Origin: an uncultured Candidatus Saccharibacteria bacterium
GTDB lineage: Bacteria > Patescibacteriota > Minisyncoccia > Phycocordibacterales > UBA9973
Direction of reading: 5' to 3'
Assembly: GCA_964468315.1 (NCBI GenBank)
Contig: CAYXTA010000005.1
Coordinates: forward strand, 1 to 42,963
Length of the DNA stretch: 42,963 bases
Shown: positions 3,983 through 19,997 of the stretch, in pieces
Layout of the letters: each line of letters opens with the position of its first letter
How positions within the stretch are numbered: the first letter of the stretch is position 1
Program-made: the position numbers and the translations under genes
Notes under the pieces: model-generated
Database searches by the model: none
What the model was told of the DNA's origin: nothing
The model's input: the letters and a program-made list of their open reading frames with translations, nothing else

Positions 3983-4093
3983 TTATGCAGCTGCTTCTTC
4001 TGTTGTTTCTTCAGCTGGCATTTCTTCTGTAGCTGGAGCTTCCATTTCTGGAGCCATTTCACCTTCAACCTTTGTTTCTTCTGTTTCGTCCAT
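3983..4093 (-). CDS. 36-aa very acidic small protein (absent from the ORF track)
   Basis: MDETEETKVEGEMAPEMEAPATEEMPAEETTEEAAA; strongly biased codons (GAA/GCT/CCA/ACA); terminator 9 nt downstream. Confidence 0.7.
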   Translation of the reverse strand: MDETEETKVEGEMAPEMEAPATEEMPAEETTEEAAA

Positions 4094-4168
4094 ATAATTT
4101 AAAAATTAAAATCCTTATAAAGCGACTATGGACAAACATTAACACATAAAAAAATAATTAGCTAGTTT

Positions 4169-6007: not shown

Positions 6008-6022
6008 ATTTTATATAAACAA

Positions 6023-6565
6023 CTATTTATTAATTTTTTTATTTTTCTTTAAAAATATTCCACCCCATACGAAAAGCAGTGCTGTGTAATTTATCATCAT
6101 ATACCATTGATTACTCCATTGCACACCATAAGGAAAACGATAATCAGACAAAGGGAAAAGAAATGGTGTCGGATAAAAAGAAAGTGCATGAGAAGGAATG
6201 TCTATGAGTATATGCAATGCCCAACCAAAAAGCTCGTATCTAGGACGTTTGTAAATAATCCATACGAGAATAAATACAAAAGCCCATATTACGAGCGAAT
6301 GACTGTATTGATACAAATAATGCGCAAGATCAAAACCAGCGACAGCTCCATGATGCTCGCCAAAAGATTTTAAAGTTAAATCACCAAAAATTATTTTATA
6401 AATTGCAATAACAAAAGGAATAGTAAAAGCAAAAAGATCTGGAAAAATTCCCCAAAATGCCGCCCAACCCACATTCACATGTATCTTTTTATTATTTTTC
6501 TCTGCAAGTGCATTTGCTCCGCGAGCTCCTGCATTCGTCCACAATGTATGTGCGAAAATATCCAT
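6023..6565 (-). CDS. Membrane-bound metal-dependent hydrolase (YdjM-like)
   Basis: N-terminal HTLW, PDL, HS and LHILID motifs within hydrophobic helices. Confidence 0.65.
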   Translation of the reverse strand: MDIFAHTLWTNAGARGANALAEKNNKKIHVNVGWAAFWGIFPDLFAFTIPFVIAIYKIIFGDLTLKSFGEHHGAVAGFDLAHYLYQYSHSLVIWAFVFILVWIIYKRPRYELFGWALHILIDIPSHALSFYPTPFLFPLSDYRFPYGVQWSNQWYMMINYTALLFVWGGIFLKKNKKINK

Positions 6566-6575
6566 AAATAATTAT

Positions 6576-7310
6576 TTATTTATTTGTAATATTATTAACT
6601 GTTATCGAACCATTAGATGATGTATAAGAAAAATTCGCAGATTCGTGTAAATGACCATCTTCGTATTCCATAACACCGATCTTTGCACTTGGATCAATGT
6701 GCAAAGAGGTCACATACCATGCACCACCGAGTACTGGTTTGCTTAAGACAAGCATCTTTATATTTTCACGAATATATTTCTCTACAGCAACTCTTTCAGA
6801 AAGATCATTACAGCTCACATCAGTCATACTTTCTCCATAAGTTATCTTATTTGCGTCTTTGTAAACATAAACTCCATCTCCACGGTCTACCATTTCACCG
6901 AAACCTGCCTGTGCATTTCCTTCACCGAAGACAATACGCAATTGTTCTTTATTTTGCATTCCTTCAGCCATAGAATTCCACCAGACATCTGCTGTACGAG
7001 CCATAGCCATTTTGTCTACGGCTCCTACTGTACCTTCGAAAGTACCAGTTTTTCTGTCCTTTTCTGCTGGTAAATAATAAAATTCTCCTGTAACTTTCTC
7101 ACCAACAAGTTTCATCTTTATCCAAGAAACATCATAAAGAGCCTGAGCTATTTTCTTTTCTTTATAAAAACAAAGTTCTATTGGCTGTTGTGTCACCACC
7201 TCTGTGTCATCGTCATTTATTACTATTTCTTTTTTATCGTTATAAGAAACAAAAAAATAAATACCTACAAAAAACAAAACAATTAAAATAATTGGAAGAA
7301 TTTTTTTCAT
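6576..7310 (-). CDS. Membrane-anchored hypothetical protein, two domains
   Basis: N-terminal TM anchor, Cys-bracketed domain (C..VTG..EG..NKE..SC), C-terminal LGGAWYV..YEDGH domain. Confidence 0.7.
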   Translation of the reverse strand: MKKILPIILIVLFFVGIYFFVSYNDKKEIVINDDDTEVVTQQPIELCFYKEKKIAQALYDVSWIKMKLVGEKVTGEFYYLPAEKDRKTGTFEGTVGAVDKMAMARTADVWWNSMAEGMQNKEQLRIVFGEGNAQAGFGEMVDRGDGVYVYKDANKITYGESMTDVSCNDLSERVAVEKYIRENIKMLVLSKPVLGGAWYVTSLHIDPSAKIGVMEYEDGHLHESANFSYTSSNGSITVNNITNK

Positions 7311-7317
7311 AAAAATA

Positions 7318-7470
7318 TTATTGAATAGGATTTTTACCTTGAATTATTCTAATTAGAAACATTACGACTGCGATAACGAGAAGTATGTGAATAAAACTTC
7401 CAAGAACATGGAAACCGACAAAACCGATAATCCATAGTATTAATAAAATCCAAGCGATTGTGATGAGCAT
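7318..7470 (-). CDS. Small membrane protein, lmo0937/DUF5670-like (50 aa)
   Basis: MLITIAWILLILWIIGF...IHILLVIAVV pattern. Start moved from the track's 7617 to the ATG at 7470. Confidence 0.75.
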   Translation of the reverse strand: MLITIAWILLILWIIGFVGFHVLGSFIHILLVIAVVMFLIRIIQGKNPIQ

Positions 7471-7517
7471 AATAGTTATTTGTTTTAAAGTTACTAATAC
7501 ATTAATTATAGCATATT

Positions 7518-8396
7518 TTACCAACTTGAGCTCGAACCTCCGCCTCCGGAAGAGCCTCCTCCAAAACCACCAAATCCTCCCCCACCACCGAAACCACCTC
7601 CACCACCAAACCACCAAGGGAAATGGCCCGAATTTCTTTTTTGTGTATGAGCTCTAGAAACGATGAAATCAAACAATAATCCTACAGAGACAAAGCCTAT
7701 GACAGACAAAATTGCTATTAATATTGAAGATATAAAAAAATGCCAAACGACAAGCCCTACGATACCTCCGAGTACTCCTCCTGCCCACCAAGATTTTGAT
7801 GGAGCTAGTATTGCTATGAGGATTTGAAAAACAACAATAATCAAAAAGAAAATAAAATCCCAAGATATTTTTGAATTTTTCTGATTCGCATTATAATCTT
7901 CCGGTACGATATTATTTCCTCCGAGTGCTTCAATCATTTTATCAACTGCACCATTTATTCCAATATAATAATCACCATTTTTGAATGCTGGAATAAGCAC
8001 ATCATTTTGTATGTATGAAGTGCCTATGTCTGTCAGATCGCCTTCTACCCCGTATCCTGTATGAATACGAGCTTTATGATCGGCTAAAGAAACTATCAAG
8101 AGTACTCCGTTATTTTTATCTTTTTTACCTATACCCCATTTTGTAAATATTTCTTGAGCGAAGTTTTCTATTGTATCTCCATCGAGAGACGTCACTGTGA
8201 CGACAGCTATTTCATTGGTTGTATTTTTCTCGAAACTTTCGATTTTGTTTTCTAGATTTTTTACTTGTTCAAGAGAAAGCATCTTCGCATAATCTTGTAC
8301 GAAAGCATTTGGCCGAGCAGGTATATCAAAAGCGTACGAAGAAAAAGGTAGAAAAAAAGAAATGATCAAAAAAGCTCGAGATATGATATATTTCAT
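7518..8396 (-). CDS. TPM domain protein with Gly-rich tail (YgcG-like)
   Basis: VQDYAKML, WGIGKK..NNGVL, TGYGVEG, GGGSSGGGGSSSSW end; downstream of lemA. Confidence 0.9.
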   Translation of the reverse strand: MKYIISRAFLIISFFLPFSSYAFDIPARPNAFVQDYAKMLSLEQVKNLENKIESFEKNTTNEIAVVTVTSLDGDTIENFAQEIFTKWGIGKKDKNNGVLLIVSLADHKARIHTGYGVEGDLTDIGTSYIQNDVLIPAFKNGDYYIGINGAVDKMIEALGGNNIVPEDYNANQKNSKISWDFIFFLIIVVFQILIAILAPSKSWWAGGVLGGIVGLVVWHFFISSILIAILSVIGFVSVGLLFDFIVSRAHTQKRNSGHFPWWFGGGGGFGGGGGFGGFGGGSSGGGGSSSSW

Positions 8397-8408
8397 TTTA
8401 TTTTAAAA

Positions 8409-8993
8409 CTAATTACTGAAATCTACTTTTGGATTTGCTTGATTTTCTTTTGGAACTTCAAAATAAGCTCTTTCTTTGACTCCGAAAATTTTCGCTATTA
8501 TAGATGAAGGGAAAGTTTTTACACTTGTATCATACACACGCACTATGTCGTTGTATTTTTGTCTTTCGACTGAAATACGATTTTCTGTACCTTCGAGTGT
8601 TACTATAAGATCTCTGTATGCTTGAGAAGATTGAAGCACAGGATAATTTTCTGTGATAACAAGAAGGCGACTAAGTGCAGATTCTACTTGTGATGCAGCT
8701 TGTGCTTTTTCATCAGAATTTGTCGCACCAGCATAACGTGAACGCGCATCAGCTATCGCTCCAAATACATCTTTTTCTTGTTTTGCTACACCTTTGACTG
8801 TGTTTACGATATTTGGGATCAAATCAAAACGGCGTTGGTATTGGTTTTCTACTTGCGCCCATTGTGCAGTTATTTGTTCACCATTTTTTATAAAAAAGTT
8901 ATATTTTGAAATAGCCCAGAGTAAAATGATCGCTAAGATACCTAGAATGACAACCCATTTTTTATTTTTTTGGAAAAAATTTTGTTCTTGCAT
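8409..8993 (-). CDS. lemA: LemA family protein
   Basis: QYQRRFDLIPN, ENYP.L, EGTENRISVERQKYN. Confidence 0.93.
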   Translation of the reverse strand: MQEQNFFQKNKKWVVILGILAIILLWAISKYNFFIKNGEQITAQWAQVENQYQRRFDLIPNIVNTVKGVAKQEKDVFGAIADARSRYAGATNSDEKAQAASQVESALSRLLVITENYPVLQSSQAYRDLIVTLEGTENRISVERQKYNDIVRVYDTSVKTFPSSIIAKIFGVKERAYFEVPKENQANPKVDFSN

Positions 8994-9019
8994 ATTATTT
9001 TAGTTTTTAGAATTAATAA

Positions 9020-9208
9020 TTACTTCATCATAGCCTCACCGTCAGCTGCAGACATAAATTTAAACATATTACCTCCACACTTCTCACATGTACCCTTTGC
9101 TGAGTATCGGCCTTTGTCGTTCTTAGTTACGACTGGGTTTACCATAGTCTGCATAGTTGGTTTATTATTTTCTCTACACTTCATACATAATGCTTTTAAT
9201 TCTTTCAT
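9020..9208 (-). CDS. DUF5679-like small zinc-binding protein
   Basis: CMKC...GTCEKCG..MFKF pattern. Confidence 0.7.
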   Translation of the reverse strand: MKELKALCMKCRENNKPTMQTMVNPVVTKNDKGRYSAKGTCEKCGGNMFKFMSAADGEAMMK

Positions 9209-9282
9209 AATTTTTTATTTTTAAATTAATAAATAATACTATCATTATACCATAAATTTTTAGTTTTATAGCAAAATAATCG

Positions 9283-9783
9283 TTAAATAACGCAATCCAC
9301 CCTTATATAATCTAGTGTTTTGTATTCTTTTGTCGTATCAGGAATGAGCATATTCTTGCCTTCTATCAAAGGGTAACGCAACTTCTGTAAAATGTCTTTT
9401 TTTACTAAATATATTTCTTTTTCTTTATTCGCTGAGCCTTCAATTACATAAGAAAATACAATATTCATGACATCTTTATCTAAAATCCCATTCAGACTTC
9501 CTTCATAACCATTCGTCATATCTGGACCAGCTTGTGTACCCTTTTTTGTACCAGTGACTACACTACCGGATACATTTATATCTATCGTCTCGCTCACTTT
9601 GTATGGTTCGTCTTTTGTCGCTTCGTGTTTATAGGCAAAACAATTCCTTCCTTCTATTTTTTCTTCTACCACAGGCGATACTTTTATTTCTTCTGTAGGT
9701 GCTATTACTTTTTTATTTTTTAAAAATATTCCAGAAGCGATAATCAGAACGATAAGCACAATAAACAAAATAGCTTTTTTCAT
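9283..9783 (-). CDS. Membrane-anchored hypothetical protein, paralog of the 6576-7310 N-domain
   Basis: TM anchor, then C..VTG..EG..NKE..DC. Confidence 0.7.
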   Translation of the reverse strand: MKKAILFIVLIVLIIASGIFLKNKKVIAPTEEIKVSPVVEEKIEGRNCFAYKHEATKDEPYKVSETIDINVSGSVVTGTKKGTQAGPDMTNGYEGSLNGILDKDVMNIVFSYVIEGSANKEKEIYLVKKDILQKLRYPLIEGKNMLIPDTTKEYKTLDYIRVDCVI

Positions 9784-9800
9784 ATATACATTATACCACC

Positions 9801-9833
9801 AAATAAAAATCCCCGTTTAGGGGATTTTTATTT
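9801..9833 (-). terminator. Intrinsic terminator
   Basis: AAATAAAAATCCCC-gttta-GGGGATTTTTATTT 14-bp stem at the stop of 9833-10081. Confidence 0.8.
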
Positions 9834-10081
9834 TATTTTTTCCAACGAGGGGCGAAGCGTATCATCCAAGTATAAAACTTTGCCAAGATAAATGGAGTTC
9901 CATTTGCTCTCATATTTTTATAACAAACTTTTTGAAATTCTTTTAGATCGTATCCGTCATAACACAATTTGCCATTTTTGAAACAATAACTACAATATTT
10001 ATCACTTTCTCTTTTTCCAGGATCTTTCACAAAAGGCATCATACAACTCTCGCAAGTATTACATTTTTTATTTTGTTCCAT
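9833..10081 (-). CDS. Putative zinc-ribbon domain protein
   Basis: CESCMMP...YCSYCFKNG and C-terminal PRWKK. Confidence 0.7.
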   Translation of the reverse strand: MEQNKKCNTCESCMMPFVKDPGKRESDKYCSYCFKNGKLCYDGYDLKEFQKVCYKNMRANGTPFILAKFYTWMIRFAPRWKK

Positions 10082-10118
10082 AATTTGATTATACCACGCA
10101 AAAGGTTATACTAATTAA

Positions 10119-10355
10119 ATGGAAAATGAAGACGAAGAAGTAATAACGAAAGACGCTCATGGCAATATTCTCGCAAATGGCGACAGTGTAATCGTGATAA
10201 AAGATTTGAAAGTGAAAGGCACTTCATCTACCCTCAAACAAGGCACAAAAATAAAAAACATTCGCCTCACTGGTGATGAAGAATTGATAGAATGCAGTGC
10301 CGATGGCATGAAAGGCCTCGTCCTCCGTACTGAATTTTTGAAGAAGAGTAATTAA
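10119..10355 (+). CDS. PhnA/YjdM C-terminal-domain protein
   Basis: DAHGNILANGDSVIVIKDLKVKG...KQGTKIKNIRL; no N-terminal zinc ribbon. Confidence 0.85.
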   Translation: MENEDEEVITKDAHGNILANGDSVIVIKDLKVKGTSSTLKQGTKIKNIRLTGDEELIECSADGMKGLVLRTEFLKKSN

Positions 10356-10366
10356 TTATTTATCTA

Positions 10367-10408
10367 AAACAATATCCTTACAAACTCCAGTATGTAAGGA
10401 TATTGTTT
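10367..10408. repeat. 16-bp perfect inverted repeat; copy 1 of a 31-bp direct repeat (10374-10404)
   Basis: AAACAATATCCTTACA-aactccagta-TGTAAGGATATTGTTT. Confidence 0.9.
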
Positions 10409-10415
10409 GTTAAAG

Positions 10416-10706
10416 TTATTGAGTGAGGTTTTGAAATGCTTTGAGAAAATTATAAAAAGTCTTTCCATATGGAGACAATGAATGCTCTACAAATCGGCCT
10501 TTGTACTTTTTATTTACCAAACCAGCAACACATAAACGTCGAGTATGCTCACCTATTGTCTTTGGATTAGCATCGAGCGTATTAATAATCTGATAGAGCG
10601 TAATACCATTTTTTTTTCCTATTAATAATAAAATCTCAATACGATGATGGTTTGACATGCCTTTCAAATGTCGCTCCATTTGTTTTGCAGTTTTTAATTT
10701 TGTCAT
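10416..10706 (-). CDS. ArsR-like winged-helix regulator
   Basis: HLKGMSNHHRIEILLLI...IGEHTRRLCVAGLV.K. Confidence 0.8.
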   Translation of the reverse strand: MTKLKTAKQMERHLKGMSNHHRIEILLLIGKKNGITLYQIINTLDANPKTIGEHTRRLCVAGLVNKKYKGRFVEHSLSPYGKTFYNFLKAFQNLTQ

Positions 10707-10725
10707 ACTTATATTATATTACGAC

Positions 10726-10756
10726 ATCCTGACAAACTCCAGTATGTAAGTATGTT
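10726..10756. repeat. Copy 2 of the 31-bp direct repeat bracketing the ArsR-like gene
   Basis: ATCCTGACAAACTCCAGTATGTAAGTATGTT vs ATCCTTACAAACTCCAGTATGTAAGGATATT: 28/31 identical, 19-nt exact core. Confidence 0.9.
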
Positions 10757-10758
10757 AA

Positions 10759-11022
10759 TTAAAGGAAAACTTCCAGCGCGCCTTCCCCGCCGTCTTGGAT
10801 CTTTGACTGGTTGTAATGCACTCCGCGAGCATTCAAATAATTCCGTACAAAGCTTGGTAATACGGGACCATTCTCACTATTCTTGCCTTTACCAGTGATT
10901 ATACGCACATGTTTATATTTCATTTCCTTAAACAACGCATTCAAAATATCCTCCGCCTCATGCATCGTGTGCCCATGTAGATCAATCTCCACCTCCGCCT
11001 TTTGTTCGTATTTGTTTGGCAT
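10759..11022 (-). CDS. Stand-alone Smr/MutS2 domain protein
   Basis: IDLHG, IITGKGKNS, GGEGALEV. Confidence 0.9.
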   Translation of the reverse strand: MPNKYEQKAEVEIDLHGHTMHEAEDILNALFKEMKYKHVRIITGKGKNSENGPVLPSFVRNYLNARGVHYNQSKIQDGGEGALEVFL

Positions 11023-11023
11023 T

Positions 11024-11803
11024 TTAATTAATTAATTTTATTTTTTCTATTTTTGGATAGAGTGGTTTGTTATTAAAAGTAACTTTGTAAGAAGAGTGCC
11101 TATGTATTCCTTCTAGTGAGTTAATATACGCAAAGTACTTTAAAGTGAATTTACTTTCACTTTTTGAATATAACTCGAAGCAAACTTTCCACTCGTTATC
11201 AGCTTTATTTTCATATTTAAAAATTCTGATAATTTCCTTTTGTCCTTTTGCTTGAAACATTGTAATGCCACCTCCTTTTACATTAGTACGTGCGACTTTT
11301 CCTTTATTAAAACCAAAGTCAGTTTTCTTAATACCTTTTGCTGCTTTTTTAGCTCCTTTATCAACATTATTTAAAATTTCACTTTCTTTTCCTTTATGCC
11401 ATCTAACTTCTAGAGCAGCTGAGACTTTTTGTCGTGCAGATAAAAATTCATTCCAAAGATCAGAATTATCTACTGGTCTACCGTCTCTATTTTTCCATTT
11501 ATCTTTTTTCCAATAATTTGCCCTTTGTTGATTATCATAAACATACTGAGAATCTGTTATAATAAGAATATGATTTATTCTAATACGCTCGACTTCTTTA
11601 CGAGCAAATTTAAAAGCTTCAATACAAGCTTTTAGTTCCATTCTATTGTTTGTTGTTTCTCCGTATGCACCACTACACACTTCATAACTTTCAATATCAA
11701 AAGAATCAGGATATTCAGCAAAAACAGAATAGCCGCCTTCGTGGCCTGGGTTTCGATAAGCAGAACCATCAACATATAATTTTAAAGCATGTGGTTCATT
11801 CAT
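11024..11803 (-). CDS. Ribonuclease HI family protein with a C-terminal extension
   Basis: YVDGS, TNNRMEL, ITDSQYV, N.DLW, WHKG, N..VDK; about 100 extra residues at the C-terminus. Confidence 0.85.
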   Translation of the reverse strand: MNEPHALKLYVDGSAYRNPGHEGGYSVFAEYPDSFDIESYEVCSGAYGETTNNRMELKACIEAFKFARKEVERIRINHILIITDSQYVYDNQQRANYWKKDKWKNRDGRPVDNSDLWNEFLSARQKVSAALEVRWHKGKESEILNNVDKGAKKAAKGIKKTDFGFNKGKVARTNVKGGGITMFQAKGQKEIIRIFKYENKADNEWKVCFELYSKSESKFTLKYFAYINSLEGIHRHSSYKVTFNNKPLYPKIEKIKLIN

Positions 11804-11814
11804 AATTTGGTAAT

Positions 11815-12588
11815 CTATTTTTCCGCTCTTTTTTGAGCATTTTTAAATCTATCAAGACTCATTAGTTCATTTTTTAAACGATGGTTTTCTATTTCAAGTT
11901 CTTTTAAACGAGGAATGAAGTCATCTGTAAATTTTATTACCCCAAGATTTTGATTCACTCCATAAAATAAATCCATTAGACCCATAGCGATATTACCGAT
12001 CTGCCAAAGGTCTGTTTTCACAAGATACTCATCTTCAATATCAAAAAATGGAGTAACAAATTTCCAATTTTCATCATCAAGTCTAAAGTTATTGTGTGCA
12101 TAAATTATATTAGAGTGAGCAGTAGATTTATTTATTTCACTTTTCATATTTTTTATGGCATCTGACCCTTTTTTAAAATTATCTTCCAACCACTTATATC
12201 TTTTATTTGTAAGTTCTTGTGAAGAATTGATAATTCCATTTTCGTCAACACCAGCAAAACCACTTTGGTTTGGATTAGAAATTGCATATGCGGCACAGGA
12301 TCCCGCCTCAAGTTCTTGACGTAAATCCATCATTGCTTGAATGTGATGCAATCTAAGAGTAGAAAAAATTGCAAGAGTATTGTGCTTTTTTATCTGTGCC
12401 ATGAACATTGCAAAAATAAAACACTCAGGATCTATAGATTTAATAAATTCTCCAAGTAAATTATTAAATTCAACTGCATTTTTAAAATAAGATCCGTAGC
12501 GTTCTTCGCCAAATAAAATCATTTGTTTTTCACTTTCTAGAATATCTTCGACTGTTTCTTGTTTAAATTCCATTATTTTATTCTTCAT
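11815..12588 (-). CDS. Hypothetical protein, HEPN-like (DUF5677-like)
   Basis: All-helical character with LRQELE and KSTAHSN motifs; family assignment is inference. Confidence 0.5.
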   Translation of the reverse strand: MKNKIMEFKQETVEDILESEKQMILFGEERYGSYFKNAVEFNNLLGEFIKSIDPECFIFAMFMAQIKKHNTLAIFSTLRLHHIQAMMDLRQELEAGSCAAYAISNPNQSGFAGVDENGIINSSQELTNKRYKWLEDNFKKGSDAIKNMKSEINKSTAHSNIIYAHNNFRLDDENWKFVTPFFDIEDEYLVKTDLWQIGNIAMGLMDLFYGVNQNLGVIKFTDDFIPRLKELEIENHRLKNELMSLDRFKNAQKRAEK

Positions 12589-14608
12589 CTATTAATTTAA
12601 TGGTTTCTTGCACTATACCCTGCACACTATCCCCTTCTTCCGGAATTATAGGTTGATGGTTTTTGTTTGTACTTTTTGGTAACAAAATTCTTCGTCCGTC
12701 TTTTTTATCATAAAATTTAATCGTAACATTTTCACCACCAAGCAAAGCTACTACTCGATCTCCTGTTTCCCCTTTTTCAGCATAACGACATAAAACTAAA
12801 TCTCCATCATTAATACCTGCAAGATTCATAGAATCACCACTCGCTCGTACTATAAAGTATTGAACACCTGCTCTGATCTTGCTTTTCTCAACTGGTATCA
12901 TTTCTTCAATATTACTTTCTCCTAAAAGTGGCTCTCCGCAAGGAGCAGAACCAACCAAAGGGATACTAACCATTTCAACTGTATAAGGAGAAATAATTTT
13001 TTCTTTCTTAATTATTTCTTTAATAGGACTTATATTTCCTATTTTATCTTTAAAATACTTTCTTAAATTTTCATCACAGATATAAATATATGTCCCTTTT
13101 ATTCCACGAGTAAGCAAAGTTTTATAAATATTTATTACATATCTTTCAAGCTCATTTGGGTCTGTTATACCATTACGTCCATTAGTATCAAAATATTTTT
13201 CTTTATCTACTTTAAGTTTTTTATTTTCAATATCATATGAAAATTCTGGACCAATAATTACTCCAACATAATTCAAGTCATAACCTTGAACAGTATGAAT
13301 ACAGCCAACTTCATTTATTGCATTTGGAGAATTAACCCAATCCTGAGCTGTTGAATTCCAAATCAATTTTAAACCATTTATTTCAATATCATGTTTTTGT
13401 GTAGATCTACTTCCTGGTTTTGTATGCCAAGGCCAAGCATAACCAGCTACAACACGAGCAAGTTTATGTTTTTTATCTTTTTCTTTTATATCAGAAACCA
13501 TTTTATCTGCATTATCATAGATTTTAAAATCGTAATTTCCAAAATTATTTTGTTTTGGTGTTTTTAAGTCAAAAATATCTTCAATAAATTTTATGTACTC
13601 TCCTCCTGCTTCCACACGCATTTGTGAACTTAATTCGTATTTTTTAGTAGTTAACTTTCTAAAATCTTCTGGTCTCACATCTGCTGGTTTTATACTTTGA
13701 TTTTCATCATAAAAAAATATTTGGTGTTTTGAAGATTTCATAATCCAATCAAGCTGATTTCCGCTATTATCTAAACCTAATTTTTTATTTACTTGATCAA
13801 AAGAACCATAACCCATAATTCCCTTTCTTCTTTGTAATCTATGAGATTCGTCCACGATCAGTAAGTCGTATTGTTCTTTTACAACATCATTTGGTCCAAT
13901 AACCATGCTTGACTTTAAACCTTTTATTTTTGAAAAAACTTTACCAATAGTTCGACGAAGTGAAGACATAGGCACAACAAGTCCTATTTTCATATTCTTT
14001 GTTTCATCTTGTTCTTTTAAATACTTAAAAAGATAAGTCGCTAAAATCGTTTTACCTGTTCCTGGTTTCCCATTCACAACAAAAGTATTAAATTCATTTT
14101 TCTTTATATCTTTAAAAATCTGCTTAGCAATAAAATATTGATCTTCTGTAAGAGATTTATAAGGTGAATATTTAAATAAGTCACTATTTTTAAGATCTGC
14201 AAGAGTATTTTTAGCTAAACCCATTTCTCTTAAATTATCCCATGCAACTTCAAATTTTGTTTTATATTTAACTTTATCGTAGTAATTATGATTTTTTAAA
14301 CCACCAGTTAAATTTTGTAGTACATACTGACCATCAGCCTGAATATGCTGAATTAACCAAGATTCAATATCAAAAGCGGCAGAAATATTAAATTCTTCAT
14401 CTGTAATAATATGAATATCTTTCAATTTTCTTCTTTCTGGATTTTCAAAATGTTGTTTACTTCTATAATATGCATTTACAGTTTGACCTATATAAATTTC
14501 TTTTTTATCTTCAATAATATATACAACAGGCCAATTGTGACCAAATTTATATTCTTTTATTTGACTAAAATCTTCTTTGTTAAAAGGGAAAGTTTTTATT
14601 TCAGACAT
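12578..14608 (-). CDS. GIY-YIG nuclease + DUF2075 (Schlafen group 3-like SF1 helicase) + LexA-type S24 peptidase fusion
   Basis: VY..YIGQT..R..H; GKPGTGKT; IVDESHRL; QMR; HTVQGYDL; LLTRG; C-terminal VGSAPCGEP, GDSM, VTIK. Confidence 0.88.
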   Translation of the reverse strand: MSEIKTFPFNKEDFSQIKEYKFGHNWPVVYIIEDKKEIYIGQTVNAYYRSKQHFENPERRKLKDIHIITDEEFNISAAFDIESWLIQHIQADGQYVLQNLTGGLKNHNYYDKVKYKTKFEVAWDNLREMGLAKNTLADLKNSDLFKYSPYKSLTEDQYFIAKQIFKDIKKNEFNTFVVNGKPGTGKTILATYLFKYLKEQDETKNMKIGLVVPMSSLRRTIGKVFSKIKGLKSSMVIGPNDVVKEQYDLLIVDESHRLQRRKGIMGYGSFDQVNKKLGLDNSGNQLDWIMKSSKHQIFFYDENQSIKPADVRPEDFRKLTTKKYELSSQMRVEAGGEYIKFIEDIFDLKTPKQNNFGNYDFKIYDNADKMVSDIKEKDKKHKLARVVAGYAWPWHTKPGSRSTQKHDIEINGLKLIWNSTAQDWVNSPNAINEVGCIHTVQGYDLNYVGVIIGPEFSYDIENKKLKVDKEKYFDTNGRNGITDPNELERYVINIYKTLLTRGIKGTYIYICDENLRKYFKDKIGNISPIKEIIKKEKIISPYTVEMVSIPLVGSAPCGEPLLGESNIEEMIPVEKSKIRAGVQYFIVRASGDSMNLAGINDGDLVLCRYAEKGETGDRVVALLGGENVTIKFYDKKDGRRILLPKSTNKNHQPIIPEEGDSVQGIVQETIKLIDEE

Positions 14609-14610
14609 AA

Positions 14611-14958
14611 TTATAATTCTGTATATTTAGTATGTTTTCCTTTAGCTTTTTTTATAGGATATTTTTTACCATTTTTTTGCATTTTTAACATAAAAGCTTT
14701 TTCAATATCAACATCTAAATCATGAGAAAGTAATAAAACCCAGTAAAAAACATCCGCTAATTCTTCAGCAATATCTTTTTTATTTTCTTTTATATATTTT
14801 TTAATTTCTTCAGGAGATTTCCATTGAAAATGTTCAAGTACTTCACTAGCTTCGAGAGATAAAGAAATAGCTAAGTCTTTAGGATTGTGAAATTGCCTCC
14901 AATCACGAGCATCTCGGAAATCATTAATTACTTTAGTTAGAGCCTTAATTTGATTCAT
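14611..14958 (-). CDS. MazG-like nucleotide pyrophosphohydrolase (DCTPP1/RS21-C6 type)
   Basis: RDWRQFHNPKDLAISLSLEASEVLEHFQW, EELADV. Confidence 0.9.
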   Translation of the reverse strand: MNQIKALTKVINDFRDARDWRQFHNPKDLAISLSLEASEVLEHFQWKSPEEIKKYIKENKKDIAEELADVFYWVLLLSHDLDVDIEKAFMLKMQKNGKKYPIKKAKGKHTKYTEL

Positions 14959-15037
14959 AACCCCTAAATTCTACCTTATTTTAAAGCATTTTTCAATATT
15001 AAAATAACCTCAAATACTATTTTCACAAATAATTGAC

Positions 15038-15066
15038 TTTACTTACAAATGTAAACAGTATATAAT
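15038..15066 (+). promoter_or_regulatory. Candidate promoter with overlapping inverted repeats
   Basis: TTTACT-17 nt-TATAAT; TTACA-aa-TGTAA at 15043-15054; TGTAAA (15050-55) and TTTACA (15070-75) form an inverted pair. Confidence 0.55.
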
Positions 15067-15072
15067 GTATTT

Positions 15073-15124
15073 ACAAAGTGCCGAAAGGCTCCGAGAAAGC
15101 CCCCGTAAGGGGGCTTTCGATTTT
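15073..15124 (+). ncRNA. Candidate ~50-nt small RNA convergent on the MazF-like gene
   Basis: GCC-GAAA-GGC hairpin, then GAAAGCCCCC-GTAA-GGGGGCTTTC followed by gatttt; no ORF. Ends are estimated. Confidence 0.45.
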
Positions 15125-15517
15125 CTAAAGGAATTTCTTTAATTTCTCTTTTATTTCCTTTAACTGCTCGTCTGGTAATTCATATAACTTTCTTTTTAAT
15201 CTTTTAACACTGAGTAATTTTAATTGAGCCAAAATAGCTGAAACTTTATTATTATCTAAATCAGTAAAATTATAATAAAAGTCAAAATCTTTTTGTTTCG
15301 TAGATAATGGAACAATCCAAAACATATGATTGTTAAATTTCTTAATAATTAATATTGGGCGAGAAAAATTTTCACCACTACCATTTTGTTCATAACCAAT
15401 ATTTTTTCCTAAACTGCTCATCCACACTTCACCTTCTTTAGGAAAACGATCAGGTTTATTCTCTTCGAAATCAATTTTCTTTTTTAATTCATTCCAATTA
15501 TTAAAATCTGTTTCCAT
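15125..15517 (-). CDS. PemK/MazF-like toxin, no adjacent antitoxin gene
   Basis: GEVWM..LG.NIGYEQ, RPILIIKK, IVPLST. Confidence 0.8.
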   Translation of the reverse strand: METDFNNWNELKKKIDFEENKPDRFPKEGEVWMSSLGKNIGYEQNGSGENFSRPILIIKKFNNHMFWIVPLSTKQKDFDFYYNFTDLDNNKVSAILAQLKLLSVKRLKRKLYELPDEQLKEIKEKLKKFL

Positions 15518-15551
15518 ACTTAAATTTTAAAACATTTTATAAATAAATCAA

Positions 15552-16076
15552 TTATATCTTCCTACTATCATACGCCCAATGGAGGAGGGCTTGGCGTTGG
15601 CGAGGACGGCAAAAAATGTCCCCTACTCGGCAGTTTTTCTTTATTTGTGCAGTGTGTCGCAAGATCATGCGCCAGCGTTTTATTTGTCTTTTGTCTTCAT
15701 CTGGGATTCTACGCCCCATGTAATATCGGCAATACCATTGGAACCATCCTCTAGGATCTTCGGAATAAATCCATCCATTTTTCTTCCAGACAGAAAGTGG
15801 TTGGCTCGCATCCACACCGAAATAATTTAATTTCTTATCATGTTTGTCTTTCGCAAATTTTGCTTTTGTAAACCAATCTTTCGGAAATTCTTTTTTGCAA
15901 TCGCGCATGTAGCGTCCGCCGAAGACGCCCAAGGAAAGCATTTCCTTGGGCGTCAGGTCTGGTTTGAATTCTATATCAAAATTTTTACCCACAGGTTCAG
16001 TCAAAAAGTATGTATACTTTTTCTGCATCTTATCATTCACTATTACTTTTTTCTTTTTGAAAGGCATTTTATTCAC
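15552..16076 (-). CDS. Conserved hypothetical protein (DPRGWFQWYCRYY.GRR family)
   Basis: LTPKEML.LGVFGG.Y, W...GW....DPRGWFQWYCRYYMGRR, RQALLHWAYD. Confidence 0.75.
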   Translation of the reverse strand: MNKMPFKKKKVIVNDKMQKKYTYFLTEPVGKNFDIEFKPDLTPKEMLSLGVFGGRYMRDCKKEFPKDWFTKAKFAKDKHDKKLNYFGVDASQPLSVWKKNGWIYSEDPRGWFQWYCRYYMGRRIPDEDKRQIKRWRMILRHTAQIKKNCRVGDIFCRPRQRQALLHWAYDSRKI

Positions 16077-16327
16077 CCCGTTAGATAATTTTTAAGTCGA
16101 CTTTTAATATATCGTTTACCCCATGCTGTTTTTAAATATTTTTCTCTATGTGTAGCATCTTGTTGATTCAAACAAGCTTCGTAATATACTAATTCCATTG
16201 GTAAACGATTTTTAGTGGAAAAAACTTTTCCACTATTATGTTCTTTAAGTCGACTTTTTAAGTCTTTAGTATAACCAGTATAGAACAATTTATCTTTTTT
16301 ACTTTTTAGTATGTAAGTATAATACAT
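16073..16327 (-). CDS. GIY-YIG nuclease (UPF0213/YazA-like)
   Basis: YTYIL...YTGYT.DL..RLKEHNSG, A..REKYLK. Confidence 0.9.
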   Translation of the reverse strand: MYYTYILKSKKDKLFYTGYTKDLKSRLKEHNSGKVFSTKNRLPMELVYYEACLNQQDATHREKYLKTAWGKRYIKSRLKNYLTG

Positions 16328-16329
16328 AA

Positions 16330-16590
16330 CTATCTAATGGGGTAAACGCCCTCAGCTTTTAATTTTTTTATTTTTTCATCTCTTCCTCTGTTGTATTCAC
16401 CTATAACTCCATCACTACGAATAACTCGATGACAAGGAATATCAGGATTATAATTCTTTTTCAAAACAGAACCAACAGCACGAGAAGCATTTATGTTTCC
16501 GCTTTTACGTGCAACTTCTTTATAAGTCAGCACTTTGCCTTTTGGAATTTTACGCACAACATCTAATACTTTTTCTGTAAAAGTTTTCAT
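16330..16590 (-). CDS. O6-alkylguanine DNA alkyltransferase, C-terminal domain only (MGMT family)
   Basis: IPKGKVLTY, RAVG, IPCHRV with active-site Cys. Confidence 0.9.
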   Translation of the reverse strand: MKTFTEKVLDVVRKIPKGKVLTYKEVARKSGNINASRAVGSVLKKNYNPDIPCHRVIRSDGVIGEYNRGRDEKIKKLKAEGVYPIR

Positions 16591-17031
16591 TTACCTTGTT
16601 ATAATATAATAAACCAAAACTGCTAAATTCCCCCACCAAGAAATAAAAGATAGGATGAAAGAAAAAATTATTTTATTTTGCCAAGACTGTGGCAAGAGTT
16701 CTCTTTGTCTTCCTTCTTTCTCACGAGCAAGCAAAAAAGGACTAACAGAAAAAGAAAGAAAAATTCCATTCAAAAGCATAATAGGTACAGAGATAACGTG
16801 GAAAAGTAAAATACCAGTAAAAGGTACACCACGATAAAAAAATATTCCACCAATGATGACGAGGAACATTCCAATCCATATCAAAGGCTTTGTGACTTTA
16901 TGTGTACGAGTCGTAGCTTCTGTCCAATATGCTGATTTGCGTCCAAGGAATCCATGCAAGTCTATGACTATCACAGCTCCGAGCCCAATAATAAAACCAG
17001 CTAAAAGTATAAACAAAGATATTGTTTGCAT
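16591..17031 (-). CDS. 4-TM membrane protein, paralog of 27573-28163
   Basis: Hydrophobic helices; shared G.G....D, LIW, NG, SW motifs. Confidence 0.7.
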   Translation of the reverse strand: MQTISLFILLAGFIIGLGAVIVIDLHGFLGRKSAYWTEATTRTHKVTKPLIWIGMFLVIIGGIFFYRGVPFTGILLFHVISVPIMLLNGIFLSFSVSPFLLAREKEGRQRELLPQSWQNKIIFSFILSFISWWGNLAVLVYYIITR

Positions 17032-17032
17032 A

Positions 17033-17428
17033 CTACTTATTTAAAAAATAAATTGATAATTGTAATACTGTCGCAAAAGAAACCCAAATAAGATATGGGA
17101 TTTGCATATACGTTACAGAACGCATATATGGAAATATTGCTATCATCATCCAAATGATAGTACCGAGGACGAGTAAAATATCTATAGATGCGAGAGTATT
17201 ATTTTTCAAACCAAACATAAGAGGTGTATAAGCAAAATTAAAAATTAAATTCAAAATAAAAGGTAAAGCTACGATGAATGGAATATTTTTATCATAAACA
17301 CCCATGAAGACTTTACTAAAAGAAATAAAAATCAAAACATATAGAAAAGTCCAAACTGGACCAAATAAATAAGAAGGCGGAGCAAAACTCGGCTTTACCA
17401 ATGCTTGATATGATTCATATGTTTTCAT
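17033..17428 (-). CDS. tspO: TspO/MBR family protein
   Basis: KPSFAPP..LFGPVWT.LY, PYLIWV.FA..L. Start moved to 17428 because TATAAT lies 6 nt upstream. Confidence 0.9.
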   Translation of the reverse strand: MKTYESYQALVKPSFAPPSYLFGPVWTFLYVLIFISFSKVFMGVYDKNIPFIVALPFILNLIFNFAYTPLMFGLKNNTLASIDILLVLGTIIWMMIAIFPYMRSVTYMQIPYLIWVSFATVLQLSIYFLNK

Positions 17429-17473
17429 ATATACATTATACTCCTTTTTCAAAAAACAATTTGGTAATAAAAA

Positions 17474-17494
17474 AGCCCATCTGAAAGATGGGCT
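17474..17494 (-). terminator. Probable intrinsic terminator
   Basis: AGCCCATC-tgaaa-GATGGGCT, with a T-run on the minus strand. Confidence 0.65.
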
Positions 17495-17517
17495 AAATTT
17501 TAAAAAACTTTCTTTTA

Positions 17518-17832
17518 CTAAGCTACAAGTTTTACTTCTAATGAAAAGTAATGAACTATTGCTTTAGAAATTTCTGTTACGGAATCGTGTTTTCCTGCTT
17601 TTTTCATTTCATAACATTCTTCATTTCGTTTCTGGATTTGTATCTTTTCAAAAATACTATCCAATTGTTCTTCTGTAGGTATCATCAAGTATTTTCCACC
17701 TTCAATCTCAACGAAGGCTGATTCAAATAAACGATGATAAATCATAACTTTTTTTGATACACCAATCTTTTTTTTCAAAAGATTATAAGCTCGGGTCTTT
17801 GTATAGACCCCTTCGGAATTACTGTCTTGCAT
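17518..17832 (-). CDS. Hypothetical protein
   Basis: 104-aa ORF followed by a terminator; no recognised motif. Confidence 0.55.
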   Translation of the reverse strand: MQDSNSEGVYTKTRAYNLLKKKIGVSKKVMIYHRLFESAFVEIEGGKYLMIPTEEQLDSIFEKIQIQKRNEECYEMKKAGKHDSVTEISKAIVHYFSLEVKLVA

Positions 17833-17945
17833 AGTCTAAGGTTTTAAAATGTTTAACAAAATAACAAATGTCCCAAATATCATACCACCCAAGGATAAAA
17901 AATCAATAGGAAGATTACTTACCTAACAACTCCAAATGAGTAATT

Positions 17946-18596
17946 TTAAATTTTTACAAACCTATGAACTTCGCTTTTTGGTAAAACCTCAGCACGGAAA
18001 CAGCAACAAAATTCCCCAGAAGCTAATTTTTTTAGATTAATTTCATCAATACGAAGTGCTTCTGTTTTATCATTTTGATACATTAAAGTTTGATCATTTT
18101 TTAATTCTTCCAAAATTCTCTCATAAGAATGAATACCGTAAATAATAAGATCAGTATAAACTGAAAGCATACCGCCACTCTTTAATGAATTAATAGCTTC
18201 AGAAATCATTTTTTTTCTTTCAATATAAAAAGGGTCTTCTATGTTTTCTTTTTCTTTTATAGGTCTCTCTATTGTTTTACCTTCCTTTGTAATTTTAAAA
18301 ACATTACCATCACGATCCCAAGATTTATGGATTGGAGCAGAGATCGTATTACTTATAACAATCTCATCAAAGTTATTTAACGGCAGATACATTTCACTTG
18401 CATCACCAAAAGTAAAAGATAAATCTGCTGGGCAAGTGTTTCCTTTTTCTTGATATTTTTTTATTGAACTCTTTGCAAGCTCAATATTTTCTTCATCAAG
18501 ATCAATAGCTTGATAACTATCTTCAGTAGATAACGGAATATTGTAACGCATGAAATATGGCGTCCTTCCACCACCGATTTCCAAAATTTTTCTCAT
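17946..18596 (-). CDS. Class I SAM-dependent methyltransferase-like protein
   Basis: ILEIGGG, IDLD, GDAS, FDEIV. Confidence 0.7.
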   Translation of the reverse strand: MRKILEIGGGRTPYFMRYNIPLSTEDSYQAIDLDEENIELAKSSIKKYQEKGNTCPADLSFTFGDASEMYLPLNNFDEIVISNTISAPIHKSWDRDGNVFKITKEGKTIERPIKEKENIEDPFYIERKKMISEAINSLKSGGMLSVYTDLIIYGIHSYERILEELKNDQTLMYQNDKTEALRIDEINLKKLASGEFCCCFRAEVLPKSEVHRFVKI

Positions 18597-18617
18597 GCAA
18601 AAATTATATCATGAAAA

Positions 18618-19997
18618 TTATTTAGTATTTTTCTCTTTCCATTCTCCACCTAATGCGAGGATGAAATTTTTGTGCATTTTACTCAATTCTTTTTTAGAAA
18701 GTTCACAAAAAGTTTTCTCTGCTGTTTCAGATTCTTTCCTGAAAATTTTATCTTGTTCTAAAATAAATGGATGTACTTTGAGTGCTTGATGATTTATTCC
18801 TAAAAGATAAACTCCGGAAAGTCTTCGCACACGAGAAAGCGCTACATAGCCTTGCCCGTATTCAAATACACCAGATAAATCCATAACAGCTGCATCCATA
18901 CTCATACCCTGGCTTTTGTGTATAGTCACAGCCCAAGCGAGACGAAGAGGTATTTGTGTTATCTGTGCTTTTATTTTTCCATTTTCTTCTACAACCCAAT
19001 CCATAGGTGTGATCTGTATCGTCTTTCCATTACGAGTTCTGATAATAGGATTTCCAGTATATTCATCGAATTCTTCTACGACACCGAGAGTTCCATTTAC
19101 AAAATGTTCTTTTGGATTATTTTTTGTACACATAACGACAGCACCTCTTTTCAAAAGCAATGTCTCAGGAGAAAGACAACCTTTCTTGAGCATCGTAATA
19201 AGTGCTTCGTTACCTTCGCTATCCATAAGGAAAGGAATTTCTTCTTCATCTTCTATTTTCGAAAGCATTTCTTCATTCACTTTATCGACATTCAAATTGT
19301 GTGAATAAAGTTTTGTAGTATTTTCTGGAATTTCAGTTTTTTCAATAAATCTTTCTTTCATGTATTCATAATGTTCTTCTTCGACACTATCACTACGAAT
19401 AGCAGAAAGTAATTCAAGAAAAGCTTTATCGTCTTGGCGATGTTGTTCACTGATATAACAAACAACAGGTTTCAATCTTTTCCATGCATTTGATTCATAA
19501 GCAAAGTGCGCCTTTTTTTCTGCTATCAGTGCACTTTGCTTTTCGATAGTTTCTTTTTTAAAAATAGGCGGAAGCTGAAAAAAATCTCCGACAAGAATAA
19601 CTTGTATACCACCAAATGGTTCAGAGTTTTGTTTTATCTCTCTACAAACTGCGTCCACCATGTCGAGCGTGTCAGCACGAAGCATAGATATTTCATCGAT
19701 GATAAGTACATGTGTTTTTCTTACTCGACGACTGACGTATTCACTACTCGCTATTTTATCCAAATCATATGGAGTCAAAGTATCTTTAATACCGATAGCA
19801 CTCCAAGAATGTATCGTCATACCTCCTATGTGTGTAGCTGCAATTCCAGTACTCGCTGTTATGGCTGGCTCTATACCATTCTCACGAAGATATGAAACGA
19901 AACTATTTATAGTATATGTCTTTCCTGCGCCGGGTTCTCCAGTAAGGAAAACACTTGCGCCAGTCTTGAGTATTGAAAGTGCTTCATTTTGAGTCAT
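18618..19997 (-). CDS. PIF1-family (SF1B) DNA helicase
   Basis: GEPGAGKT, IIDEISML, GDFFQLPP, QIPLRLAWAVTIHKSQGMS, YVALSR. Confidence 0.93.
   Translation of the reverse strand: MTQNEALSILKTGASVFLTGEPGAGKTYTINSFVSYLRENGIEPAITASTGIAATHIGGMTIHSWSAIGIKDTLTPYDLDKIASSEYVSRRVRKTHVLIIDEISMLRADTLDMVDAVCREIKQNSEPFGGIQVILVGDFFQLPPIFKKETIEKQSALIAEKKAHFAYESNAWKRLKPVVCYISEQHRQDDKAFLELLSAIRSDSVEEEHYEYMKERFIEKTEIPENTTKLYSHNLNVDKVNEEMLSKIEDEEEIPFLMDSEGNEALITMLKKGCLSPETLLLKRGAVVMCTKNNPKEHFVNGTLGVVEEFDEYTGNPIIRTRNGKTIQITPMDWVVEENGKIKAQITQIPLRLAWAVTIHKSQGMSMDAAVMDLSGVFEYGQGYVALSRVRRLSGVYLLGINHQALKVHPFILEQDKIFRKESETAEKTFCELSKKELSKMHKNFILALGGEWKEKNTK

Follow-up and report, generated by a model that had tools for sequence, protein, structure and literature searches.

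Introduction

What restrains a toxin of the MazF family when no antitoxin gene is found beside it? The question is raised by a stretch of 42,963 nucleotides from an uncultured Candidatus Saccharibacteria bacterium (contig CAYXTA010000005.1, assembly GCA_964468315.1), here called the window and always meant at its full length. In this DNA a PemK/MazF-like gene lies on the minus strand and, directly beyond its stop codon, a putative small RNA gene on the plus strand converges on it. A first-pass annotation of the window, made from the letters and a list of open reading frames (ORFs), had proposed that the RNA is the antitoxin of the protein and that the layout differs from that of type III toxin-antitoxin systems. 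The analysis described below compares the locus with its relatives in other genomes. Its outcome is that the pairing of toxin and RNA recurs across hundreds of bacterial lineages and that the small RNA is probably the antitoxin of this toxin, both the toxicity of the protein and the antitoxin function of the RNA being predicted from sequence.

A small RNA gene converging on the toxin gene

The gap of 166 nt past the toxin stop codon holds, on the plus strand, a promoter, two hairpins and a T-rich tail (Table 1). The promoter had been described as TTTACT-17-TATAAT on the strand opposite to the toxin, and it is present there with 10 of 12 matching positions. The TTGACT at 15033-15038 is the usual, ancestral -35 of the family, shifted by a 5-nt insertion relative to L001, the closest syntenic relative (toxin 90% identical, labelled Candidatus Nomurabacteria). 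The 5' end of the RNA is placed by the spacing from the -10 and its 3' end by the terminator. The GNRA-capped hairpin and the GC-rich hairpin of 10 bp, which is also closed by a GNRA loop, were both recovered in the minimum-energy fold of a 64-nt stretch (-25.6 kcal/mol, z -4.2). The terminator stem, GAAAGCCCCC/GGGGGCTTTC, is a perfect 10 bp with a GUAA loop (15095-15118) and is followed by GATTTTCT, which runs into the toxin stop codon at 15125-15127, so that terminator and stop codon abut. The linker UCCGAGA and the 3' UUCGA (15116-15120) could extend this stem via tandem G-A pairs.

The window alone proves nothing in this respect, since promoter-like hexamers are no rarer in this AT-rich DNA than in shuffled sequence (16 found and 12.9 expected); it is the comparison across loci that does. 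On such counts there could be no small RNA gene at all, the hairpin being just the terminator of the toxin gene and the promoter match a product of chance. Metatranscriptome data at the locus consist of unstranded assembled contigs of flat depth, which give neither RNA ends nor strand.

Close relatives of the toxin number 870, are mostly 70-80% identical and occur in many lineages of the Patescibacteria (candidate phyla radiation, CPR). For the comparison, 65 loci were taken from GTDB species-representative genomes, 61 of which have at least 60 nt of 3' flank. A convergent promoter-RNA-terminator unit was found past the toxin stop codon, on the opposite strand, in all 61. Its promoter follows the order TTGAC(A/T), 16-18 nt and (TGn)TAnnnT, and after a further 6-7 nt the RNA begins with A(C/U)AAAG(U/C)G and continues with a short hairpin, (C/U)CGAGA, a GC-rich hairpin and UUCGA(G/U)UUU. 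The linkage of the element to the toxin family, which the first-pass annotation had named as a check along with an alignment of 3' flanks and a test of covariation, thus held throughout.

A covariance model, R1, was built from an alignment of 53 non-identical RNA copies (A1). It scores 76.3 bits in the window, at 15071-15130 (+), and matches 58 loci at the expected spot with 26-88 bits. The loci missed by R1 (L057, L062 and L064) show the same parts by eye in another sequence, and their toxins are about 40-53% identical over the aligned segments. In the same way, the unit is present (R1 35-82 bits) in members that were brought up separately by a profile of distant homologues, including one on a 540-kb contig whose protein cluster is named Saprospiraceae in NCBI. 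Grouped at 90% identity, the toxin family as a whole makes up 4,347 clusters; at 50% identity (E <=1e-3) it has 1,906 representatives.

The position of the promoter is fixed. A small-RNA -10 was found in 58 of 59 loci and ends 6 or 7 nt before A(C/U)AAAG in 54 of these; it is TG-extended in 45 of 59, and a -35 of the type TTGAC[A/T] lies at 16-18 nt in 48 loci. Neutral identity in 37 clean genes of the core family amounts to 33% at 4-fold synonymous sites, which are saturated, and to 27.5% in the far flank. In the core family, identity is 32% within the promoter spacer and 37% from the -10 to the start. By comparison with the 33% at 4-fold sites, pairwise identity reaches 92% in the unpaired ACAAAGU and 98% in the UCCGAGA linker. 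Invariant in A1 are C22, G23, A24 and G25 together with T46, T47, C48 and G49, the last four being the TTCG of the 3' side. A(C/U)AAA is retained in all subfamilies of the Patescibacteria and in Nitratiruptor, and each toxin subfamily bears a distinct, internally conserved RNA sequence. The sequence ACAAAUGGAC-AUUA-GUCCAAUCGAGAAG is found in L058 and in the Saprospiraceae-type L066, with a close variant in L061.

Once the flanks were aligned and covariation was counted, 99.3% of the cells of A1 that should pair were found to hold standard pairs, and 8 of the 13 pairs were changed on both sides (45 cells). None of 500 shuffles reached any of the observed measures, and sliding the partner by one column lowered pairing to 54-58%. 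Compensatory changes affect six of the ten pairs of the terminator stem (99.4% of cells paired) and two of the three pairs of the small hairpin, in which G-C becomes U-A in L031 and L051; the stem of this hairpin is longer or different in other subfamilies. Read on the plus strand, its loop is a GNRA tetraloop (GAAA, GUAA or GCAA) in 47 of 53 copies and UUCG in two, whereas on the toxin strand the same loops read as unremarkable UUUC, UUAC and UUGC. Likewise, G-U cells number 10 on the RNA strand versus 2 on the toxin strand.

According to these comparisons, the small RNA is real and is read from the plus strand, because its promoter is fixed in position, its stems covary, and its loops and G-U pairs fit that strand. 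The small RNA proposed at first pass is in this way upheld, and an equivalent on pVir, a plasmid of Campylobacter jejuni, has been verified by experiment. Conversely, the reading without an RNA gene is hardly credible and is effectively refuted by the comparative data: the promoter position stays fixed while the spacer drifts, the small hairpin and the 5' motif beyond the terminator are conserved and covary, and the loop types and G-U pairs indicate the strand opposite to the toxin. Moreover, the homologous RNA of C. jejuni has been mapped and is Northern-positive (PMC3656092).

Other features proposed for the region fared differently. The T-tail had been assigned to the plus strand only, so that it would end the small RNA and not the toxin mRNA. 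The tail is there, and the terminator scan of the window reported this terminator on the plus strand only; in the 10 nt past the stem, however, the RNA strand has a mean of 4.5 T and the toxin strand one of 2.9. This asymmetry is only moderate, and the hairpin probably terminates transcription in both directions. Inverted repeats do overlap the small-RNA promoter (15050-15075), as had been noted, but they are not conserved across loci and were rejected as an operator; they are probably incidental, because identity in the promoter spacer sits at the neutral level. A peptide encoded by the small RNA was also rejected: it would lack a conserved start codon, and any reading frame is broken by the terminator loop, whose length ranges from 4 to 9 nt. 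Finally, a search of Rfam 15 found no family that matches the small RNA at gathering score and none credible at E up to 10, the best permissive match (25.9 bits, cut-off 50) being to an unrelated family and inside the toxin ORF.

Unusual arrangements were observed in several loci. The toxin gene of L061 (2284-2724) contains in-frame stops and that of L035 (2994-3450) an early stop, and both loci keep the small-RNA gene (25.9 and 81.9 bits, respectively). A decayed toxin next to a kept RNA would be expected where the toxin decays and is outlived by its antidote. In L042 (2260-3461) and L069 (224-1415), a pair of divergent MazF-like paralogues is arranged back to back, and a convergent small RNA accompanies either gene. 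Both loci also have a third RNA copy, an orphan lacking a toxin of its own, that points to an NYN-domain gene (L042:2260-2321, 47.7 bits; L069:1354-1415, 43.6 bits), and a further orphan copy lies at L066:203-263.

The toxin and its predicted activity

The protein encoded opposite to the RNA covers the entire profile of the Pfam family PemK_toxin (PF02452; positions 1-109 of 109) at an E of 5.6e-11, and its 43 bits exceed the cut-off of 23.1. It also matches PHROG 9567, a phage family named 'MazF-like growth inhibitor', over residues 2-128 (E 9e-18). An AlphaFold2 model built from a diverse alignment of 96 sequences reached a predicted local distance difference test score (pLDDT) of 87 and a predicted template modelling score (pTM) of 0.82; an earlier model from 32 close sequences was discarded (pLDDT 47). 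When the model was compared with known structures by Foldseek, the roughly 40 best matches were all MazF structures, with target-normalised template modelling (TM) scores of 0.65-0.81 (0.7-0.8 for the top matches), the best being the MazFs of Staphylococcus aureus, Bacillus subtilis, Bacillus cereus, Mycobacterium tuberculosis and Escherichia coli. The type III toxin CptN came at rank 44 (E 8.7e-5, TM 0.50-0.59).

In a profile alignment to B. subtilis EndoA, R53-P54 falls on the RP motif (R25) and S72-T73 on the threonine (T48); following published MazF structures, R53 and T73 are presumably the catalytic residues. R53, P54 and T73 are invariant among 32 close relatives, and R53 and P54 across 96 diverse ones. 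The family has two features of its own, a 5-residue insertion in the loop preceding R53 and an N-terminal helix at residues 5-17, in which W8 and K12 are invariant even among distant members. The toxin is thus, as modelled, a MazF-fold protein with both catalytic residues conserved, and is predicted to be a toxic endoribonuclease. The family is unusually conserved for a toxin, with 70-80% identity of the protein across classes of Patescibacteria, synonymous sites being saturated.

In the toxin ORFs of 44 loci, TTCGA (10 occurrences, 26.8 expected) and TCGA (33, 53 expected) belong to the words that are most strongly depleted. Both depletions have a z of about -4, a soft statistic because the genes are related. 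They may hint at the recognition sequence of the toxin, UUCGA being the invariant 3' motif of the small RNA.

Absence of a linked protein antitoxin

The predicted promoter of the toxin gene (Table 1) has a -10 that ends 6 nt ahead of the ATG. Of 44 related loci, 28 have a TAnnnT hexamer whose end lies 6-7 nt ahead of the toxin ATG; the -10 is TG-extended in 21 of the 44, and a Shine-Dalgarno-like sequence occurs in only 2. Since the -10 lies so close to the ATG, the toxin mRNA of the window is probably leaderless and a transcription unit of its own, made from a weak promoter. The same spacing therefore leaves no room for an upstream cistron.

It had been stated that no antitoxin ORF flanks the MazF-like gene, and the wider sample agrees: with the promoter abutting the ATG, no ORF cluster is common to more than 6 of 66 toxin-containing stretches (the 65 loci and the window). 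The most-shared neighbour clusters are spurious, consisting of ORFs laid across a GC-rich repeat or across the RNA gene itself. The genomic contexts of the toxin vary between loci and are often mobile. Given these varied contexts and the lack of a conserved protein neighbour in the 66 stretches, the toxin is the only constant candidate partner of the RNA. A distal antitoxin beyond the 43-kb window would need to be unlinked in dozens of unrelated contexts.

Homologues in Campylobacterota

Homologues of the toxin were also found in plasmid and phage records, namely on plasmids of C. jejuni, Helicobacter and Nitratiruptor and in the CJIE4 prophage; their annotation is in every case that of a lone PemK/MazF toxin. 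Each is accompanied on the opposite strand by a promoter with an extended or near-extended -10, by hairpins and by a terminator adjoining the stop codon; covariation was seen between the two Helicobacter RNAs. The homologue on pVir of C. jejuni 81-176, CJJ81176_pVir0047 (30634-31038, +), has no adjacent antitoxin gene. It is 44% identical to the window toxin over 104 residues (E 4e-24); the N-terminal helix with FxxWNExKK and the catalytic motifs, RP and S/T, are found in both. From sequence, the start of its small RNA was predicted near 31119 (-), behind an extended -10 promoter.

The published primary transcriptome (PMC3656092) gives an RNA named CJpv3 on pVir, mapped by differential RNA sequencing (dRNA-seq) from 31119 to 31043 (-), 77 nt long and marked "Detected on Northern blot". 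The same source assigns a height of 16164 to its start site at 31119 (-) and of 28 to the start site of the toxin mRNA at 30608 (+), hence a signal about 580 times that of the toxin mRNA. CJpv3 ends 5 nt from the toxin stop codon at 31038. The RNA being mapped and abundant, the architecture deduced for the window is experimentally real in a homologue.

An RNA-antitoxin/toxin pair of pVir, CjrA/CjpT, has been published as type I, and CjrA is described in the literature as an antisense small RNA (sRNA). CjrA as the RNA antitoxin and CjpT as the protein toxin of a 'type I' system were reportedly described by Shen et al. 2016, Mol Microbiol 101:909. CjpT/CjrA is probably pVir0047/CJpv3, an identity that is inferred here.

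Possible modes of action

The locus in the window is probably a self-contained two-gene RNA-antitoxin module, irrespective of whether the RNA acts on the protein or on the mRNA. In the mechanism proposed here, the toxin would be made from its own weak and probably leaderless promoter on the minus strand, and a strong sigma-70-type promoter on the plus strand would fire toward the end of the toxin gene, giving an RNA of about 52 nt that stops at the toxin stop codon. The RNA antitoxin would be produced in large excess and would presumably turn over fast. A drop in transcription, for instance upon phage attack or loss of the element, would then free the RNase.

The neutralisation itself would take place by direct binding of the RNA to the toxin protein in a type III-like manner; that the RNA works in this way is a proposition placed at, or slightly under, an even chance. 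The contacts with the toxin would be made by the single-stranded 5' A(C/U)AAA and by the bases of CGAGA and UUCGA. ACA is the classic recognition core of MazF enzymes. More speculatively, the 5' end of the RNA at ACA might sit in the active site like a cleavage product and remain uncut: as the RNA starts exactly at ACA, no nucleotide lies 5' of the site, and cutting would be avoided. A third way of curbing a MazF-fold RNase can tentatively be drawn from this, with confidence somewhat below even, in which a single-copy convergent RNA binds the protein and presents its 5' A(C/U)AAA as an uncuttable mimic, the whole forming a compact abortive-infection or addiction device. Such a device would act as type III systems do and yet share nothing of their architecture.

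Direct binding is favoured because the unpaired bases are conserved and each subfamily keeps its own RNA sequence, and because a partner has to travel along with a module that passes from phylum to phylum. The complementarity of a cis-antisense RNA is automatic and thus does not need conserved unpaired bases, whereas a protein-contact surface does need them.

Several observations weigh against this reading. The convergent, abutting geometry is kept in every subfamily, which hints that geometry matters and would more naturally suit antisense action or transcription interference than a diffusing, protein-binding RNA. The ACA itself is not universal, as AUAAAG replaces ACAAAG in about 13 loci and a 5' ACA is absent from the RNAs of Helicobacter and C. 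jejuni. Nor is ACA avoided in the toxin ORFs (ACA z +1.8, ACAAA z +2.3), so that nothing here marks it as the target of the enzyme. As modelled, the toxin resembles type II MazFs in fold far more than it does ToxN or CptN. Finally, the published pVir pair, probably pVir0047/CJpv3, is classed as type I.

The main alternative would be type I-like. In this case the RNA would pair with the 3' end of the toxin mRNA, over the shared terminator or, after read-through, along the entire RNA gene, and lead to RNase III cleavage and decay with the protein left untouched; additionally or instead, the strong convergent promoter would block transcription of the toxin gene by polymerase collision. The Fst/par locus and the type I loci of B. 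subtilis are likewise convergent with a 3' overlap, which counts for such a mode. The convergent arrangement, in which 5-8 nt separate the terminator from the stop codon, is the same in all subfamilies and phyla, and the tail on the toxin strand is poor in U (the mean of 2.9 T in 10 nt given above), which makes read-through into the RNA gene plausible. A metatranscriptome contig of 151 nt, unstranded and possibly DNA carry-over, spans the toxin 3' end, the RNA gene and the promoter region. Moreover, CjrA/CjpT, probably pVir0047/CJpv3, has been described as a type I system with an antisense sRNA.

This alternative is nonetheless judged rather unlikely. It explains neither the 92-98% identity of the unpaired bases nor the subfamily-specific sequences. 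The RNA does not overlap the ORF, and that of C. jejuni ends 5 nt beyond the stop codon; the terminator loops that a kissing contact would need vary in length and sequence; and the toxin is a soluble RNase of 130 amino acids, not a small membrane peptide. An internal antisense site, in which CGAGAAA of the RNA would pair with UUUCUCG at codons F51-S52-R53 (15362-15370), was considered and rejected as a conserved pairing: it is lost in outgroups retaining CGAGA, which use GAA-AGA, GCT-AGA or GGA-AGA at these codons, and one outgroup without CGAGA has TCT-CGG.

The codons concerned show a strong bias. In the core family (the window and 36 related loci), all 36 Ser codons at position 52 are TCN, 27 of them TCT, as compared with 58% TCN and 42% AGY elsewhere, and Arg53 is encoded by CGN in 31 of 37 genes, as compared with 28% CGN and 72% AGR elsewhere. 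TCTCG is also the most enriched 5-mer in the toxin ORFs (38 occurrences, 12.8 expected).

It has also to be asked whether the RNA is a partner of the protein without being its antitoxin. It might be a cofactor, a guide or specificity subunit, or a dedicated substrate, in a small ribonucleoprotein that is perhaps a defence effector. The strict linkage and co-conservation show a functional pairing, whatever its sign; for a toxin, the protein is conserved to an unusual degree, as said above; and its neighbour in the window (12578-14608) has defence-type domains with Nhi and AbiO profile matches. This possibility is nevertheless improbable. To our knowledge, MazF-fold proteins with intact Arg and Thr have, wherever tested, been growth-inhibiting RNases that need an inhibitor, and no other inhibitor is encoded nearby. 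For pVir, an RNA antitoxin (CjrA, probably CJpv3) has been published. The excess of about 580-fold of RNA start-site signal over toxin mRNA is the stoichiometry of an antidote.

Genomic context

All genes of the window from 916 to 19997 lie on the minus strand, and the toxin gene stands between two co-oriented neighbours (Table 1).

Table 1. Predicted features at and around the toxin and small RNA genes of the window
Feature	Position	Strand	Description
Gene for 676-aa protein	12578-14608	-	N-terminal GIY-YIG nuclease, Schlafen-group-3/DUF2075-type helicase, C-terminal S24 (LexA/UmuD-like) peptidase
MazG-like pyrophosphatase gene	14611-14958	-	Downstream of toxin; promoter TTGAAA-17-TAGAAT at 14996-14968
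Small-RNA promoter	15033-15066	+	-35 TTTACT 15038-15043, 17 nt, -10 TATAAT 15061-15066; 10/12
Small RNA, about 52 nt	15073-15124	+	ACAAAGU, GNRA hairpin, UCCGAGA linker, terminator hairpin, U-tail
5' end ACAAAGU	15073-15079	+	Conserved, single-stranded; at predicted transcription start
Small hairpin	15080-15089	+	GCC-GAAA-GGC; 3-bp stem, GAAA tetraloop
Linker UCCGAGA	15090-15096	+	Nearly invariant
Terminator	15095-15126	+	10-bp stem, GUAA loop, tail GATTTTCT
Toxin gene	15125-15517	-	130-aa MazF/PemK-fold endoribonuclease (predicted); predicted catalytic R53 and T73
Predicted toxin promoter	15524-15551	-	TTGATT, 16 nt, TAAAAT; 9/12 match
Unclassifiable 174-aa ORF	15552-16076	-	Directly upstream of toxin; visibly G+C-richer than surroundings

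For the 174-aa ORF upstream of the toxin, no match was found in Pfam, NCBIfam, PADLOC or PHROGs, and L001 is the only locus in which it recurs; from this distribution it is not a conserved partner of the toxin. On the other side, the 676-aa protein matches the PADLOC profiles Nhi (E 1e-18) and AbiO (E 9e-17), a sign that the locus may lie in a defence island.

The module of several related loci has tRNA genes, a large serine recombinase and the LOOT RNA as neighbours. In L007 inverted repeats of 297 nt, 99% complementary (2661-2957 and 4674-4970), flank a segment of 1716 nt that holds the toxin, the small RNA and a 380-aa ORF and that adjoins a 533-aa large serine recombinase and tRNA genes. 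GC-rich sequence similar to that of L007 was observed just upstream of the toxin in L004, L005, L009, L011 and L053. The L007 segment could be an invertible or mobile cassette. The defence-type neighbour and the mobile contexts fit a mobile addiction or defence cassette.

The LOOT RNA (Rfam RF03000, 78-88 bits) was seen about 100 nt beyond the small-RNA promoter in L002 (3132-3253), L009 (3547-3670) and L011 (993-1114). Genes with an NYN domain, a predicted RNase, are found near the module in L001 (2041-2523), L003 (3816-4298), L042 (1693-2184 and 3708-4226) and L069 (1491-1982), and none in the window. The window also contains the 5' part of a bacterial 16S rRNA gene, which runs off its start (1-395, -), and a single tRNA gene (35618-35688, +).

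Significance

No account of a convergent small RNA facing a MazF-family toxin in Patescibacteria was found in the literature searched, and a widespread module of this kind, chiefly in this group, appears not to have been described there before. Thousands of genes are annotated as "type II toxin-antitoxin system PemK/MazF family toxin" without an antitoxin, and in the present family the partner would be an unannotated small RNA absent from RNA libraries, so that recognising the module would lead to a correction of the annotation. The RNA itself forms a compact and well-covarying new family, suitable for Rfam. The module is likely a common addiction or defence module in Patescibacteria, in which such systems are little known.

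It also provides a clean test case for the action of an RNA antitoxin on the mRNA versus the protein, as a cultivable homologue and an RNA seen by Northern blot exist. If direct binding is true, the classification of the Campylobacter member as 'type I' would have to be changed, and the module would be a major compact device in the small genomes of Patescibacteria, present as well on plasmids of Campylobacterota and in a Campylobacter prophage.

Comparison with known toxin-antitoxin systems

The toxin has the fold, the catalytic residues and the Pfam family of the type II systems MazEF and PemIK. In contrast with these, no gene of the MazE/PemI type is present, the toxin promoter lies at the ATG and the protein has an extra N-terminal helix. 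As no MazE is encoded, the module is, on its gene content, not a type II MazEF system. The PemK RNA motif of Rfam is, like the small RNA described here, a non-coding RNA associated with pemK/mazF genes, but the small RNA matches neither this nor any other Rfam family.

Type III systems (ToxIN, CptIN and TenpIN) resemble the module in two ways: their endoribonuclease toxins are related in fold to MazF/Kid, and the RNA is small, structured and conserved in sequence beyond its structure, as expected for a ligand of a protein. The differences are larger in number. The locus has no tandem repeat array, Tandem Repeats Finder reporting only short AT-rich runs of low complexity; the RNA occurs as a single copy under a promoter of its own, in a downstream and convergent position instead of upstream and co-transcribed; the toxin is not of the ToxN/CptN family (NCBIfam CptIN 15.8 bits, cut-off 90; no PADLOC match); and nothing points to processing of the RNA by the toxin. 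The module is thus outside type III by its architecture and its toxin family, in agreement with the claim that the layout, with one RNA downstream of the toxin and converging on it, is unlike that of type III.

Type I systems with convergent genes and a 3' overlap are known from Fst/par of pAD1 (RNA I-RNA II) and, in B. subtilis, from txpA/RatA and bsrG/SR4. As in these, the RNA is encoded in cis and transcribed toward the 3' end of the toxin gene, and as in par the two genes share a terminator, here a probably bidirectional one. Type I toxins are, however, hydrophobic peptides of less than 60 amino acids, and the overlap between RNA and mRNA measures 75-120 nt, whereas the present toxin is a soluble RNase of 130 amino acids and the assured overlap is at most the terminator hairpin. 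The small RNA shares the terminator and does not overlap the ORF, and any overlap in the 3' untranslated region depends on where the mRNA ends. In addition, unpaired bases of the RNA are conserved here for no antisense reason. The module is therefore not a typical type I system.

The closest comparison is with pVir0047/CJpv3. There too, a homologous toxin has no antitoxin gene and is faced by a separately transcribed convergent RNA that ends beside its stop codon. The two RNAs are not alignable, and R1 has no match at the 3' flank of the pVir toxin: CJpv3 is 77 nt long, has three hairpins and starts with GUUUGAC, whereas the RNA of the window is 52 nt long, has two hairpins and starts with ACAAAG. 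The toxin mRNA of pVir has a 26-nt leader, that of the window probably none. The difference in layout put forward at first pass thus stands with regard to type III, yet it probably has a precedent, since the CjrA/CjpT pair of pVir is likely the homologous locus. The nearest relative of the module is the pVir0047/CJpv3 locus, a known but barely described kind.

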